In this document: in pieces, positions 2,231-62,460 of the stretch
Layout of the letters: every line of letters starts with the position of its first letter
How positions within the stretch are numbered: the stretch's first letter is position 1
Assembly (NCBI GenBank): GCA_963718665.1
Contig: OY970359.1
Coordinates: 320,001 to 384,000, forward strand
DNA from: an uncultured Phycisphaerales bacterium
Lineage (GTDB): Bacteria; Planctomycetota; Phycisphaerae; Sedimentisphaerales; Anaerobacaceae
Direction of reading: 5' to 3'
DNA length: 64,000 nt
Notes under the pieces: generated by a model
Databases searched by the model: none
Told to the model about the DNA's origin: nothing
The model's input: the letters and a program-made list of their open reading frames with translations, nothing else
Made by a program: the position numbers and the translations under genes

Positions 2231-3301
2231 ATGGCAAAACAATCTCTGCCCAAGCCATCGCTGGAGCATCTTCGTCGGCTAACCGATGATACGGGGCTTT
2301 TTCAGCACGCCAAGTTCACAATACCGCTTCGCAGCGAGGGCTACACGACCGACGACAACGCCAGGGCTTTAATCGTGGCGACAAAACACTATGCCCTGTA
2401 CCGCAAGCCGGAAACACTGCAACTAATCGACAGGTATTTGGCTTTTGTTCTTCATTCGCACAACGACGACCCTTCTTCGCTATCGCTACGAAGGGCAGGT
2501 GGCACGGTGAAGAATTTTATGGATTTCGACAGGACCTGGCATAAGGCAGAGCCGGTCAATGACGCATTAGGACGGGTAATCTGGGCATTCGGGGCTGTTT
2601 TGGCACAACCTCCTTCCGAGATTTATGTGCCTATAGTTCAAGAGCGAATCGATATAGCGATGCCACTTATCAAGAAGCAATACCCGCGGGGATTGTCTTA
2701 TTCGATATTGGGTTTGGCTGGTTATCTTAAACGGCTCCCAGATGCAGAGAATGCTAAAAGCTGTATGGCAACCGCAGCGGATTTGATTGTGTCGCGGTTC
2801 AAGGAAAACACCAAACCGAATTGGCCCTGGTTCGAGAACATACTCACTTATGACAATGCGATGCTGCCTTGTGCGCTTTTCACGGCCGGTATAACACTTG
2901 GTGAAAAAAAATATCTGCAAGCCGCGAAGAAGGCCTGCGATTTTCTGTTGGCCAATACTTTTACGGGTGCTCACTTTAGTTTCATTGGTTGTAACGGCTG
3001 GTTTCCGCGGGGAGGTCAAAAGGCACAGTTCGACCAGCAACCAATCGAAGCGGCGGGGACAATTCTGATGTTAGACGCCGGATATAAGACGACAAAGGAC
3101 AAAAAATATCTGATGCTGCGGCAAAAAGCATTTAACTGGTTTTTGGGCGAGAATGACTTGGGGATTCCACTTTACGATTCGAAGAGCAAGGGCTGCGGCG
3201 ACGGGCTTGGTGCAGAAGGCGTCAGCTTAAATGAGGGAGCGGAAAGCACACTTAGTTTTCTGCTTGGTCTGCTGACAATGTGCGAAGGTAAACATCTATG
3301 A
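2231..3301 (+). CDS. Six-hairpin glycosidase-like protein (resembles the C-terminal domain of GT4-fused glycosyltransferases)
   Basis: LTDDTGLFQHA, GYTTDDNARAL, WPWFENILTYDNA, FDQQPIEA and NEGAESTLSFL motifs. Confidence 0.7.
   Translation: MAKQSLPKPSLEHLRRLTDDTGLFQHAKFTIPLRSEGYTTDDNARALIVATKHYALYRKPETLQLIDRYLAFVLHSHNDDPSSLSLRRAGGTVKNFMDFDRTWHKAEPVNDALGRVIWAFGAVLAQPPSEIYVPIVQERIDIAMPLIKKQYPRGLSYSILGLAGYLKRLPDAENAKSCMATAADLIVSRFKENTKPNWPWFENILTYDNAMLPCALFTAGITLGEKKYLQAAKKACDFLLANTFTGAHFSFIGCNGWFPRGGQKAQFDQQPIEAAGTILMLDAGYKTTKDKKYLMLRQKAFNWFLGENDLGIPLYDSKSKGCGDGLGAEGVSLNEGAESTLSFLLGLLTMCEGKHL
2470..2499. repeat. 30-nt palindromic mini-element inserted in frame (copy 1)
   Basis: CCCTTCTTCGCTATCGCTACGAAGGGCAGG is near-identical to 54892-54921 and adds PSSLSLRRAG to the protein. 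Confidence 0.75.
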
Positions 3302-14162: not shown

Positions 14163-14225
14163 TTTCTCCTTTTTGCCCGGATTGGAGCAATAGACCTACC
14201 CTGGATAGATAATGCGTCGAAAGAC

Positions 14226-14296
14226 CTGGGGTACTAGGATTCGGACCTAGACTAACTGATCCAGAGTCAGTTGTGCTACCATTACACTATACCCCA
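14226..14296 (-). tRNA. tRNA-Gln(CTG)
   Basis: TGGGGTATAGTGTAATGGTAGCACAACTGACTCTGGATCAGTTAGTCTAGGTCCGAATCCTAGTACCCCAG folds as a cloverleaf with anticodon CTG. Confidence 0.93.
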
Positions 14297-14342
14297 ATAA
14301 AAGTATTGACCGCAGGTGCACATCTAATTTACACTGATTGTT

Positions 14343-15023: not shown

Positions 15024-15059
15024 CCCATCCTTCGCCCCTTAGGGGCTACGGAGGAGGGG
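15024..15059. repeat. Intergenic palindrome related to the 30-nt element
   Basis: CCCATCCTTCGCCCCTTAGGGGCTACGGAGGAGGGG shares the CTTCGC...GCTACG(A/G)AGG core. Confidence 0.55.
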
Positions 15060-26495: not shown

Positions 26496-26506
26496 TGAGC
26501 AGTAAT

Positions 26507-26577
26507 GGGGACGTGGTGCAACGGGAGCACACCGCGGTCGCATCGCGGGAATGAGGGTTCGATTCCCTTCGTCTCCA
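26507..26577 (+). tRNA. tRNA-Ala(CGC)
   Basis: Cloverleaf with the G3:U70 alanine determinant, anticodon loop GT-CGC-AT and T-loop TTCGATT. Confidence 0.92.
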
Positions 26578-26686
26578 TTTTTTTATTTTCTTCGGCAAGC
26601 CCTCGATATCACAAAACCTCACGTTAAGAAATGAGCGACGGTATGGCAACTTGCGGCGTATGCTCAGGTCGTGCTATACTGACGGT

Positions 26687-41796: not shown

Positions 41797-41884
41797 ACAC
41801 CGATTAACACTGATTTACACGGTAAAAACAAAACAGTGTTACCTATCCTGAGCTTGTCGAAGGAATCCTGTGTAAATCTGCGTC
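41797..41884. repeat. REP-like palindrome with 10-nt periodic arms carrying a nested 22-nt element
   Basis: ACACCGATTAACACTGATTTACACGG...CAGTGTTA[CCTATCCTGAGCTTGTCGAAGG]AATCCTGTGTAAATCTGCGTC; an empty arm copy lies at 44286-44313. Confidence 0.7.
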
Positions 41885-51607: not shown

Positions 51608-52092
51608 ATATCATCATAAATCGCAGTCTATCCCACGGGGACGGGCTGCTTATATCAGTTGGTGCAAAGAGGTGATGTAACAACTTGCAATTTCTAAACC
51701 CTCAAATAGTCTCTTGCTGTCTTTCCCCCAAAAAATAATTGCAAAAAATCCGGAATAATCATCAACTTTTAGTGCTCTACAAACGCCTTTGAGTGTAGAG
51801 GCTTCTGAAAAACTGAGGCGCAACTTTTTTCGTGTTTCGCCAAAAATCTTTGAAAATACTATTGAGTTTTCGTAAAGAATTGCCGAAAGATATGCGAACA
51901 GCAACCGACAATACTAACCTGAATCTGAACGAAGCCTGCCGACAAAGCGCTGTTCGCACAGTTATCCCCCAAGCTGATTCCGCAGGTTTTTTTCAACATT
52001 ATGTTTCCTCCGACATAGAACAGGGCAGGGCAGGACGCGCCCTGTCCGCCATAATCTTTTTTTAATAATTCCAATATATGATGGAGGCTATC

Positions 52093-53382
52093 ATGAAAAA
52101 ATTAACAATTATATTATTAGTAATGTTGTGTCCAAAAATACTGCTTGGTGCGGGGATAACCATCATCTCAACACTGCTTGTCTCGCCCCTTCCAGAGAAT
52201 AGGTTTTGGGTGGAAAACAGCAATATGAAATGGGTATATGGCTTTGGAACGGGCTATCAGTCCTATTTACAGGATGCTGTTGGCGAGCCGATCGTGGCCA
52301 GAACAATCGCCTTCACAATAAAAGGCCACAACAACGGCGGAGCTTATATGCTGACAAACACTCCACCTTACACCAAAGTTTATGGACAGGATACCTTTGG
52401 CTCCGCGGGATGGCAGAAAACCTCTGGCAAGACGGGGGCTGACGGCTCAATGCTCGCCGGGGCAGGATATGGAAATCCAAACGTGTTTATGAGGGCGTGT
52501 GATTATTCGTCTTCTCCAGTATGCAATCCCCCACTGCCCGGCAACCCAACGCCTTTGGTCACAAGCGGCGGAACCGGATACGACTGTTCTGTGCTTGATA
52601 TAGAAATCGCCTTCAAAAAACTCGGCAAGGTGCTCTCTCAAAGCGCTTATATGTTTGTCGAACTTGTTGACGGCTCAAACATACAATGCCAATGGTGGTA
52701 CTCAGCGGATGCTTCTGTCAATTCAAATTCAACCTCTGCTTCTTCGTCCGCCGCTTCCAATCGCTCCATTGCCGTAAGCAGCACAGCCACGCTGACAGTT
52801 ATACCGACACTGCTCACGCCGCGAGCGTTCGCGGGAGCGGACACAGATAATGTGGTTGACGGGCCGCCGCAAGCGTTCGACATTTCTTCCGTTAATGGCT
52901 GGTGTCAATGGGTGCAGGGCTGCTATGTACAACGACTCTGTCTTATACCGGAATCTTTTGACGGCGATGAAGATAACAAGCCATACCGGACGCTTGACCA
53001 GTGTTCGCCGTATGTTTATGTTGAAACATTGCCCGGAACAGACGATAATCAGTGCATGATAATTTACAGCTTAACGGATTCAAATACTCTAATCGCCAGC
53101 ACGAATGTCACGATGCATAAGCAGGGCAGCAAGTTCGTCTCCGATTACATCGTACCCACCGATGAGCCGAATTATTCCGGCACGATTGTCGGGGAGTCAG
53201 GGCAGACTTACAAGGTGATTTTCGTGGAGGACGGCTGCCATTTGACTATACAGCCATTCACGCAGCCGCCGACCGATGTGGTGAATTTTACGGACTTTTC
53301 GAGGGAAGCGGCGTCTTATGAAACGGTGGACTCCGTGCTCCCTTTTTTCGGAAGGTACTTAAAAAATAAATATACACCGTAA
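52093..53382 (+). CDS. Secreted hypothetical protein
   Basis: SD GGAGG, signal peptide MKKLTIILLVML and a long clean ORF. Confidence 0.75.
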   Translation: MKKLTIILLVMLCPKILLGAGITIISTLLVSPLPENRFWVENSNMKWVYGFGTGYQSYLQDAVGEPIVARTIAFTIKGHNNGGAYMLTNTPPYTKVYGQDTFGSAGWQKTSGKTGADGSMLAGAGYGNPNVFMRACDYSSSPVCNPPLPGNPTPLVTSGGTGYDCSVLDIEIAFKKLGKVLSQSAYMFVELVDGSNIQCQWWYSADASVNSNSTSASSSAASNRSIAVSSTATLTVIPTLLTPRAFAGADTDNVVDGPPQAFDISSVNGWCQWVQGCYVQRLCLIPESFDGDEDNKPYRTLDQCSPYVYVETLPGTDDNQCMIIYSLTDSNTLIASTNVTMHKQGSKFVSDYIVPTDEPNYSGTIVGESGQTYKVIFVEDGCHLTIQPFTQPPTDVVNFTDFSREAASYETVDSVLPFFGRYLKNKYTP

Positions 53383-54027: not shown

Positions 54028-55071
54028 TTAATAACATTCGGCCGGGCCGAGGACCATTTTGTAAAGGCCTTTGTCAAAAAAGAATTGGCGAATACTTGTG
54101 CAAAGATGACACTTGCCCGCATACAACTTCGATTGCGTGTAACCGGCTTTGACTGCCTCGTCTAATAATCCCACCGGGCCTGAATTGAACAGCGTTTCAA
54201 TCAATTTATCGTTACTCGGCTGCCAGTTTTGCCAGATTTCAGCTAAAGGCCGTTTAGCGATATTTCCAACAATTATCCCGCTGCAGGTCCCGCTAAAAAT
54301 ATTGCCATAGGGGTCAATATGTACGCCTTTGGCGTCGAGAAATGCGTTCGAGCAATTTCGCGTTGCAATTTGTTCAACTGTCTGTGATGCGACTAATTCA
54401 GCAATTTTGCCAGCCGCCCTGCCTGTAAACCGGCAGGGGTAATCTTTCAATGCTTCAACATAGCCTTTGTTCCGCTCATCTGCTGTAATATTCTTCATCT
54501 CAACCGGCTTATCAAGATACTTTTCCCACCGAACCAGAACACGGTCCTGCCCAAGTAACTCCTTCGCTACGCTCGCCAGTCGTTTTACCAGCTCGATATC
54601 GACGTATTCCTGATGAAACGGGTCGCAACTGATTTTGAGCCGACGCACACCGAATTCATCGAGTGTTCTTACTCGCTCTTTGACAATCTTTTCATCAACT
54701 GCCCAAAAGCCGTTTGTTTCAATCATATCAACAGGACCAAGGTTGTTCTTTTTAGCTTCCCGCAGAATCTCAACTAAGTGTTCCCAGTATAAAAATGGCT
54801 CGCCTCCCGTAATATGAATTTTAGCGTTATCTCCCGCTAATTCTTTCAGCGATTGCCAGGCATTTATCGCCATATCGACCGGCATCAAGCCCCCGTTCTT
54901 CGCTGCGCTACGAAGGGCAGGCCCCTGCCGCGGCGAGCAGTTATAATAACAGAATTCGCATTTAGCGTTACATTGATACGTCAGCAGAAGGCCAGCGTTA
55001 CGCCAAATTTTGAACTTCGGCTCATCCCGCCCCGCCTGCTTATTATAATTGTTTCTTGAAAGCAAACTCAT
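54028..55071 (-). CDS. Radical SAM protein with a SPASM/twitch-like C-terminus
   Basis: [31 protein letters not shown] and CHLC. Confidence 0.9.
54892..54921. repeat. 30-nt palindromic mini-element inserted in frame (copy 2)
   Basis: CCCGTTCTTCGCTGCGCTACGAAGGGCAGG adds [10 protein letters not shown] just after the CxxxCxxC motif. Confidence 0.75.
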
Positions 55072-59641: not shown

Positions 59642-59706
59642 ACTCCGTGAGATATCACAAGCTCTTTTTTACTCCGTGGGACAATAAACAATTTATCTCA
59701 CGGGGT
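59642..59706. repeat. Intergenic inverted repeat
   Basis: ACTCCGTGAGATA...TATCTCACGGGGT with an extra internal arm ACTCCGTGGGA; a related arm TATCCCACGGGG lies at ~51629-51640. Confidence 0.6.
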
Positions 59707-60822: not shown

Positions 60823-62460
60823 ATGCAAAAGGCAAGTATTATCGTAAAAACAATGTCAATCATAGTTATGGTGTTGGCTTCTGTCCCATTTGCGACAGCA
60901 GCAAATTTAGCAGATTATTTTCCTCTGGGTTTAGGAAGTTCATGGACATATCAGAATGTTGCAGACCACGACGATATGTACACTATAAGTGTTTTTGAAC
61001 GGTTCCTATTCCACAATAACCCAGCAGTTAAATTTGGAAAAGGCATTGATGATTATGCTATTGGTTATAACAACGGATCTTCTGTAAATATTTACTGGGG
61101 CGCATCTGGTGCTATATCTATTGGAAATTTTACAGACGGGACTTTTTTTAATTTGATGGAACCCACTAATTTTGTACTCTTGCGGATGTACGACAACCTT
61201 AATCCTGCGCTCAAAAGTGTTTACGGCGTTAACGACACCAATCTTGTGCTGTGGGTAACCTACGACAGCAGTTATCCGAAGAATTCACAAAATAGTATCG
61301 TAGAATCAAATCTTGGTGTCTCCATTCCAGACTATGCCGTTACAGGTATTGAATGGTATGCTAACGGTGTAGGTGAAATTGTTAACTTGGATGTCGATGC
61401 AGAAACTGGCAATATCGGGACACGATACGAACTAATCGACTACAATATAGTGTCCGAACCATCTCAATTCGGTACCGTTGGCGGAAAAAATATCAAGCTG
61501 ATACAGAAGGATTGCGATGGTAACAATGTAACATTCAGCCTGACAGGAGGCGGTTATGGTGAAGTAAATAGTACTGACTGTGCTTTCTCCACTATTAATC
61601 TGTTCCATACAACAGTAAACTCGGCGCTGACGATTTCAACAAAAGGCAAAGTCTACACGAGCGCAGGCAGCATAATTTGTAACGGGCCAATTAAAAGTAT
61701 CACGGCCAAAACCACTGAACTGTCAGGCAGTATTACAATTGGCTCTTCTTCGAATCCCGAAGCGGCTGTAACGATTGTTTTTGACCAGGCAAACGACCTT
61801 GCGATAAACAGTCAAATGCCAATACAGTCGATTTCAGCAACAGAATGGCTAGGCGGTTCAATTAACGCCCCCTCGGTCGGCAGTATAACAATCAAGGGTG
61901 ATACAAAGCGAGAAATATCAGGCGACTTATACGACGTCAATTTAATCTTGAGTCAACTGCCGGATGTTAAAATAATGGCCTTAGGCAGCCTAACCGTGAA
62001 TGGCTGGATAGATTCCAGTCAAATAATATCGCAAGGAAACATCGGCACAGTAACCGCCGGTGCAATGATAAATTCGGTCTGCTTTGCGGGCGTTAGTCCC
62101 GCTTATTTAGTGGACGTAAATGCTGCTGATGGCGTTCTCGATTTGCCCCCTGTCTTAGATGATACTTTTAATGAAACGGCAACAATAAATAGTATCGCGA
62201 TTAAAGGTATAAAGAGCGAGAATCCGCTTTACTTCATCAACAGCAATATCGCCGCGAAAAATGTTTCCAGCATGTATATCGCTTATCCAAAGTATGACAA
62301 TGCCGGCGCTCCGTTTGGTATCAGTATGTATAACAACCCCGCCAAAACATTCACAATTAAGGATGCCAACGGAACACATTCATGGAAGGGTAATAATATC
62401 GGCACAGCAGTCGATTGGCTCCTTGGAAACGGTGGTGATATGCAAATCCGCAGAGATTAG
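60823..62460 (+). CDS. Secreted/surface hypothetical protein with a beta-rich repetitive C-terminus
   Basis: Signal peptide, DYFPL..GSSWTY, EWYA.GVG.I and repeated I.SI../VGSITI units; upstream TTGACA-type promoter. Confidence 0.75.
   Translation: MQKASIIVKTMSIIVMVLASVPFATAANLADYFPLGLGSSWTYQNVADHDDMYTISVFERFLFHNNPAVKFGKGIDDYAIGYNNGSSVNIYWGASGAISIGNFTDGTFFNLMEPTNFVLLRMYDNLNPALKSVYGVNDTNLVLWVTYDSSYPKNSQNSIVESNLGVSIPDYAVTGIEWYANGVGEIVNLDVDAETGNIGTRYELIDYNIVSEPSQFGTVGGKNIKLIQKDCDGNNVTFSLTGGGYGEVNSTDCAFSTINLFHTTVNSALTISTKGKVYTSAGSIICNGPIKSITAKTTELSGSITIGSSSNPEAAVTIVFDQANDLAINSQMPIQSISATEWLGGSINAPSVGSITIKGDTKREISGDLYDVNLILSQLPDVKIMALGSLTVNGWIDSSQIISQGNIGTVTAGAMINSVCFAGVSPAYLVDVNAADGVLDLPPVLDDTFNETATINSIAIKGIKSENPLYFINSNIAAKNVSSMYIAYPKYDNAGAPFGISMYNNPAKTFTIKDANGTHSWKGNNIGTAVDWLLGNGGDMQIRRD

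Follow-up and report, generated by a model that had tools for sequence, protein, structure and literature searches.

According to the main text of the report on the Ssn system, the nuclease SsnA binds its hairpin as single-stranded DNA (ssDNA) only and cuts a few bases upstream of an unpaired foot (PMC11893778). The role shown there is restriction of incoming ssDNA, mobility being merely hypothesised, and the authors suggest an IS-like origin as well as many further enzyme–hairpin pairs (Chenal 2025, PMC11893778). Small palindromes lying in frame within genes have already been described, as intragenic REPs (PMC3733652) and as Rickettsia palindromic elements (RPEs), and CGTC REPs are presented as repeats without a dedicated transposase (PMC3733652).

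Here we analyse a window of 64,000 nucleotides (contig OY970359.1, positions 320,001 to 384,000 of the forward strand) from an uncultured Phycisphaerales bacterium, whose homologues bear names indicative of Sedimentisphaerales (Planctomycetota). In our main reading, to which we assign a probability of about 55%, a family of ~30-nt hairpins with a foot inserts precisely and is likely mobilised in trans by small GIY-YIG nucleases docked at tRNA genes. Literature searches returned no description of the hairpin, its peptides or tRNA-docked GIY-YIG cassettes; the Ssn paper itself escaped this searching, so relevant work, including in the Ssn and REP supplements, may exist.

Two in-frame hairpins and the family they belong to

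Five features of the window are considered first.

2231..3301, plus strand: host gene 1, 356 aa, with the insert as aa 81-90
2470..2499, plus strand: hairpin copy 1, left arm of 11 nt, loop TATC, right arm of 11 nt, foot CAGG
15025..15059, plus strand: third family member, 35 nt, intergenic, overlooked in the first-pass annotation, present in the relative G017 and absent from the relative G014
54028..55071, minus strand: host gene 2, radical SAM protein, 347 aa
54892..54921, plus strand: hairpin copy 2, loop TGC, foot CAGG

The first-pass annotation had reported two 30-nt copies that leave their host reading frames open, and both copies (CCCTTCTTCGCTATCGCTACGAAGGGCAGG at 2470-2499 and CCCGTTCTTCGCTGCGCTACGAAGGGCAGG at 54892-54921) and both frames were confirmed. 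The 16-nt block that they share occurs exactly twice in the 2.61-Mb genome of the window (G000; one contig, 94.6% complete, 84% coding) and 20 times with up to two mismatches. Copy 1 lies in sense orientation and in frame with gene 1, and copy 2 is antisense to gene 2, likewise in frame, and encodes 10 residues. Host gene 1, for which no Pfam or NCBIfam match was found, is predicted from its structural model to adopt an alpha/alpha-barrel fold, as in sugar epimerases and glycoside hydrolases; in the AlphaFold model the insert forms a loop with pLDDT below 50 after helix 60-77. In gene 2, the insert is placed shortly behind the CxxxCxxC motif.

Orthologue alignments contained the clean gap of 30 nt or 10 aa that the annotation had anticipated, at both sites. 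Five of 17 genus orthologues of gene 1 carry the 30-nt insert, 11 are empty and one has an unrelated 36-nt palindrome at the identical codon boundary. Among 120 homologues of gene 1, 117 cover the site, and 106 of these are without an insert, five have the copy-1 peptide and six another; the ten residues are thus not broadly shared, and a conserved protein loop at site 1 is ruled out. Site 2 is empty in 19 of 20 orthologue loci. An 805-nt contig from public run X1, which may be the source sample and hence not independent, shows no difference across copy 2, and run X4, from a more distant relative, spans site 2 with no net deletion. A contig of the latter run also holds a family variant elsewhere in the radical SAM gene (at window position 54732; net 33 nt, in frame).

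The genome-wide pattern suggested by the annotation, TTCGC-N3,12-GCTACG[AG]AGG, gave 13 matches in G000 and none in an order-5 Markov control genome. With a two-arm position weight matrix (PWM) trained on 41 G000 copies, 55 copies (including those 41) were found at a cut-off score of 22, again with none in the Markov control. Neither outcome named by the annotation as a refutation, residues broadly shared by orthologues or a motif unrepeated in the genome, was thus observed. Assembly artefact or chance is ruled out by this control together with the orthologue gaps and the public contig match.

The unit, termed family A, consists of a left arm YCCNNCTTCGY, a loop and a right arm RCTWYGNNGGN, completed by a foot of 4 nt that mostly reads CAGG and lies outside the stem, on one side only. 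The annotation had called the element palindromic; a hairpin it is, but an imperfect one, its 11-bp stem having two fixed mismatches, a variable loop and the unpaired foot. Across G000, G017 and G014, which together gave 58 distinct arm pairs, stem pairs 7 and 9 are always mismatched, and the four variable pairs covary, being Watson-Crick in 51, 53, 45 and 54 of 58 against shuffled expectations of 30 (29.8 for pair 1), 34, 25 and 36, in a set that includes related, non-independent copies. Since the mismatches are fixed and the pairs covary, it is the bulged hairpin and not the peptide that is kept. Taken alone, the folding energy gives modest z values, between -0.2 and -2.7. An exact size of 30 nt holds for both window copies but not for the family, in which single units measure 29-37 nt with a mode of 30 (25 of 55 copies). 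The terminal tags (n = 55) are CCTG in 29 copies, TTTA in eight, CCCG in five, CCTA and CTTG in four each, and others in five.

Although the genome is 84% coding, 44 of the 55 copies (~80%) are intergenic. The remaining 11 fall in predicted genes (ten by a simple gene caller, plus copy 2), one of these ORFs probably being spurious. The proposal of an element that adds 10-aa loops holds at the two window sites, with 10 codons in frame at each, and needs correcting for the family, which resides mainly between genes. Some copies, such as that at G000 position 183848, overlap gene ends and may supply a stop codon (TAA in the loop). No replichore strand bias was detected (26 of 55 copies). A strict pattern was present in 24/24 genus genomes, with 4-44 copies each, and in 22/201 phylum genomes, the reversed control giving 0 in both sets.

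Mobility, target preference and survival in genes

Filled and empty sites were compared with relative G017, for which 2.0 Mb of ~2.8 Mb entered the comparison and 1.52 Mb aligned at 89.8% identity. This resolved 13 of the 55 sites, 10 of them empty and three filled, which supports the annotation's suggestion of a very small mobile element and indicates that this non-coding unit has moved recently. In all six family-A filled/empty pairs the junction repeat is just 0-2 nt, i.e. no target-site duplication accompanies these dispersed copies; the count left out 1047965, 1155643, 2040315 and 2605754 (other families, ambiguous or false) and four compound events. An A^Y bias marks the target: position -1, just before the left arm, is occupied by A in 59 of 97 copies (local background ~30%), and the base at +1 of the foot is C or T in 79 of 97 (~48%). 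At least four of the 55 copies carry a second copy nested in the loop, as judged by eye, and such nesting fits a single-stranded target. Boundaries, empty sites, family size, covarying stem, A^Y bias and loop nesting are all directly supported.

Copy 1 is carried by G000, G016, G012, G014 and G015, with 27/27 inner bases identical in all five. These carriers are not monophyletic in the gene 1 tree (p-AU 3e-6, quick tree), in which G000 is sister to the empty G006, and their third codon positions are 67-87% identical pairwise; the chance that the nine third positions of the insert alone would stay invariant is ~0.003. With the insert invariant and the third positions diverged, plain vertical neutral descent of copy 1 is unlikely. 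Possible explanations are reinsertion at a hot spot, a homing-like transfer of short tracts, or several precise losses combined with selection that acts on the hairpin. Gene 1 is mosaic among the relatives. Around copy 1, no co-conversion tract is evident, the run identical to other carriers extending 2 nt to the left and 4-5 to the right; the right flank is identical to G012 over 41 nt, but equally so to the empty G008.

The annotation had proposed a test for enrichment of lengths divisible by three among coding insertions. Here, 30/30 genic indels labelled as repeats are 3n, versus 7/14 intergenic ones; yet unlabelled coding indels are 3n as well (34/37), so the bias reflects ordinary selection. 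Four reading frames of the hairpin are mostly open (34, 36, 33 and 28 of 37 copies), which, together with the modal length of 30, makes for easy in-frame survival. Across the 120 gene 1 homologues, all 11 insert sites lie outside predicted helix interiors, which occupy 48% of positions. In-frame copies are survivors, not the target, of a mainly intergenic, REP-like repeat, and the inserted peptide is likely a tolerated passenger.

Gene 1 also receives other elements: 38 of the 120 homologues have at least one insert of at least 7 aa, at 11 sites and from many repeat families, and sites 80, 197 and 247 have each been struck by different elements. The commonest in-frame insert in G000 is a sister 24-nt hairpin-plus-foot family (window 41842-41863; GAGC..TCGA core), with peptides such as PSTSLRAG and PAVSKVEP, 48 regex matches versus six in the control, and 16 coding indels relative to G017; GIY-YIG genes of its own, located at tRNAs, accompany it in 7/7 loci. 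CCCGTGAGAT-type inverted repeats (window 59694-59704; loci L044, L091, L110, L272 and L307) form 63-66-nt inserts, some in frame, and have a different GIY-YIG clade as their partner; G000 contains one member of that clade. A further 30-nt family occurs at G000 positions 510837, 1047965, 2459902, 2462003 and 377321 (indels relative to G017 or G014), some copies being in frame. Finally, two ORFs of the window (52078-53382 and 60823-62460; 434 and 545 aa) have no Pfam match.

GIY-YIG nuclease cassettes behind tRNA genes

Small GIY-YIG genes are numerous in the genus, and their clades each adjoin their own repeat. Association with family A was scored using a PWM built from dispersed G000 copies only. 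Clade A1 (81 aa, many phyla) has a hairpin within 300 nt upstream at 73 of 114 loci, or at 61 of them under a stricter score threshold, compared with 0/380 far windows and 0/24 loci of other GIY-YIG clades, and the gene stands behind a tRNA or tmRNA at 89 of the 114. For clade A3 (84 aa), the hairpin is found upstream at 39 of 60 distinct loci, four of which are distant matches without the cassette layout, and in 0/131 far windows (0/511 for both clades together). A3 genes follow a tRNA tail at 55/60 loci, and at 45/60 this tail is repeated just past the gene, typically over 13 nt and matching the local tRNA; A1 cassettes rarely duplicate it (2/61).

The cassettes share sequence with their surroundings and with the dispersed copies. 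The first cassette hairpin starts with the last bases of the tRNA, the A3 unit behind tRNA-Ser differs from copy 2 at one position over 29 nt, and the C-terminus of the A3 protein is encoded by an inverted hairpin. Tandem units at locus L290 (genome G032) have the same CC..CAGG boundaries as dispersed copies. That locus (L290:820-1030) holds six diverged ~30-nt hairpin units in tandem, leading from tRNA-Ser to the GIY-YIG gene like a small array. Elsewhere, at L086, L088, L090 and L109, a GIY-YIG clade has the complete tRNA-Pro gene on one side and, on the other, a partial copy of that gene's 5' end. Rfam searches of 18 cassette loci returned tRNA, tmRNA, 6S and one weak sub-threshold match, and no hairpin family.

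The hairpin might alternatively spread by an RNA route, in which read-through transcripts of tRNA and hairpin are reverse-transcribed at GIY-YIG nicks in a SINE- or Penelope-like manner, the reverse transcriptase (RT) coming from elsewhere. The position of the cassettes directly behind tRNA/tmRNA genes, with a first hairpin that begins on tRNA bases, and the 13-nt duplications at A3 cassettes are in keeping with this, and GIY-YIG plus RT is the Penelope arrangement as described in PMC1564403. Yet the cassette sequences analysed contain no RT, the dispersed copies show neither duplication, tRNA remnant nor A-tail, and SsnA, as reported in its main text, does not bind RNA (PMC11893778), all of which leaves the RNA route highly doubtful next to DNA-level mobilisation by the nuclease.

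Cassettes are patchy at orthologous tRNAs, as two tRNA genes of the window illustrate.

14225..14297, minus strand: tRNA-Gln(CTG), no cassette in G000 or G017
26506..26578, plus strand: tRNA-Ala(CGC), no cassette in G000 or G017

In G014, the orthologue of this tRNA-Ala is followed by twin hairpins and a GIY-YIG gene of clade A1 (L291); the hairpin nearer to this gene is identical over 26/26 nt to the G000 copies at genome positions 481775 (in frame) and 1138531. The tRNA-Gln of G014, G002, G006 and G034 has a GIY-YIG cassette with a sister hairpin family, B.

The A1 and A3 proteins (81-84 aa) have PF01541 as their sole domain. Tyr, Arg and Glu are conserved at the usual GIY-YIG catalytic positions, and the A1 structural model matches Slx1 and UPF0213.

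Enzymes named by the annotation as candidates were sought in G000 and its relatives: the GIY-YIG suggestion was borne out by association, but not that of RAYT, and the cognate clades A1 and A3 are absent from G000. No family-A hairpin flanks any of its own candidates, which are two Y1_Tnp, two small GIY-YIG, one GxxExxY and three four-helix-bundle genes. The GxxExxY and the three four-helix-bundle genes have other repeats within 300 nt on each side (G000 alone, by eye); these genes, near 395709, 1235580, 140558 and 1520008, are accompanied by short simple repeats of their own that are among the most frequent 12-mers of G000.

An IS200-type HUH mechanism goes with a bulged hairpin and a foot and leaves no target duplication. 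Family A might accordingly be a REP-type repeat moved by an HUH tyrosine transposase (RAYT or IS200/IS605 TnpA), its GIY-YIG adjacency being incidental: the bulged hairpin, 4-nt foot and absent duplication form the REP/IS200 signature (REP form, PMC3733652), a GTAG lies within the foot-first strand, and Y1_Tnp genes are present in G000 and in 21/24 genus genomes. Against this, a hairpin lies within 500 nt at just one of 27 genus Y1_Tnp loci, which speaks against RAYT as the partner; the palindromes around both Y1_Tnp genes of G000 are different ones, the tags at the hairpin ends read CCTG/TTTA and not GTAG/CGTC, and the GIY-YIG link is clade-specific. We therefore regard an HUH transposase as an improbable mover.

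In one draw of 200 phylum genomes, in which kin are not independent, the strict pattern was found in 9/19 genomes with an A1 gene and 12/181 without. Within the genus, copy number did not correlate with the detected presence of A1/A3 (mean 16.7 with, n = 7; 15.5 without, n = 17; p = 0.61), as scored from 70 classified GIY-YIG loci, a set that leaves out some weak or broken matches. This null result, the persistence of copies in genomes lacking the gene, and the mosaicism of gene 1 would suit a different explanation, namely that the hairpins are sites of a domesticated Ssn-like nuclease for ssDNA restriction or recombination control and spread passively when the host recombines or repairs its DNA (by template switching or conversion of short tracts), with no nuclease-catalysed insertion. 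SsnA is indeed described as cutting incoming ssDNA near the NTS hairpin and lowering transformation (PMC11893778). Passive spread sits poorly, however, with precise unit-length insertions at unrelated sites that show A^Y bias and no flanking homology, with an A3 target duplication that matches whichever tRNA is occupied, and with the patchy occurrence of cassettes at orthologous tRNAs. We judge it rather unlikely.

We thus return to mobilisation by the GIY-YIG nuclease, which is suggested by analogy with SsnA and is accompanied by two directly supported observations, the A1/A3 association and the 13-nt tRNA-tail duplication around A3 cassettes. By that analogy, an Slx1-like nuclease would bind the bulged hairpin on ssDNA and nick beside the foot. 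At an A^Y step, host repair would then place the foot-plus-hairpin strand into a nick, either by copying or by joining, and whole cassettes would enter tRNA tails via staggered nicks. Genic copies would survive if their length is 3n, the frame open (usually 4/6 frames) and the site a loop. Against this mechanism stand the lack of these clades in G000, the absent copy-number correlation in the genus, the even distribution over replichore strands and the rarity of tail duplication at A1 cassettes. The first two of these points would be accounted for if cassettes were transient and left hairpins in the genome. The joining step is the weakest link of the mechanism, no precedent for it having been found in the literature; to our knowledge, no GIY-YIG protein has strand-transfer activity. 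In most cases CAGG does not come directly after the A1 hairpin nearest the gene, so that either A1 or A3 could be the maker of the CAGG copies.

Implications and comparison with known systems

A broader reading, which we advance tentatively and at somewhat less than even odds, would see in small Slx1-like GIY-YIG proteins the transposases that move a hitherto unrecognised class of single-strand mobile elements, comprising autonomous ~350-bp tRNA-homing cassettes and 24-33-nt hairpin micro-transposons, one family per clade, that can return to one and the same codon boundary in separate lineages and continually add loops of 8-11 residues. The micro-transposons would then be among the smallest mobile DNA. 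Mobilisation by the nuclease, if true, would add a transposase chemistry and sequence-specific ssDNA nucleases that are both new, and would provide bacterial proteins with a steady supply of inserted loops. The origin and movement of REP-like repeats without RAYT is an open question, for which family A supplies matched enzyme–hairpin pairs outside SRM, exact filled/empty sites and a target bias, and which becomes testable with an 81-84-aa protein and a 30-mer. Should the nuclease not be the mover, a well-mapped new REP-like family remains. The in-frame habit is already known; the interest lies in the matched nuclease–hairpin pairs with exact insertion geometry.

RPEs, the analogue proposed by the annotation, are less close than the Ssn/SRM GIY-YIG system and intragenic REPs. 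Like family A, they are palindromic, sit in frame within unrelated ORFs, in their case translated, and are absent from orthologues, but as described they measure ~150 bp and are nearly half intragenic, compared with 30 nt and ~20% here (PMC10969869, PMC3733652), where the peptide moreover varies with frame and strand. The hairpins resemble MITEs in being short, non-coding, multi-copy and, likely, trans-mobilised; they differ from MITEs as described in lacking target-site duplication and a parent IS and in having asymmetric ends, at about one fifth of the typical size (PMC10969869).

With REP/RAYT repeats as presented in PMC3733652, family A shares a stem-loop of 20-40 bp, an unpaired terminal tetranucleotide, a mostly intergenic location with some copies in frame in ORFs, and complementary stem variants. 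It departs from GTAG/CGTC REPs in its tag, its two fixed internal mismatches and the rarity of a RAYT neighbour (1/27). With the Ssn/SRM system, as far as its main text describes it, the shared features are a small GIY-YIG gene that stands alone and has at its flank an oriented hairpin of its own, complete with unpaired foot, and many dispersed copies, few of them in genes. In contrast to Ssn/SRM, the SRM consensus (HGTCWY...) occurs in 0/55 copies on either strand (14 other G000 matches), the foot is CCTG/TTTA, and the 3' ends of tRNAs serve as docking sites for the cassettes, whereas the main text of PMC11893778 does not contain the word tRNA; movement is supported here by filled and empty sites, whereas the enzymology is drawn by analogy. 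In a quick tree, the GTCAT-flanked clade taken as Ssn proxy includes neither A1 nor A3, which score a median of 29-30 bits against it and, by this proxy, are probably not in cd10448 (GIY-YIG_unchar_3). Thus, the hairpin family works like Ssn/SRM and REP/RAYT and is a member of neither, as the SRM pattern is found in none of its copies, its tag is not GTAG/CGTC and its nuclease clades stand apart from the Ssn proxy.
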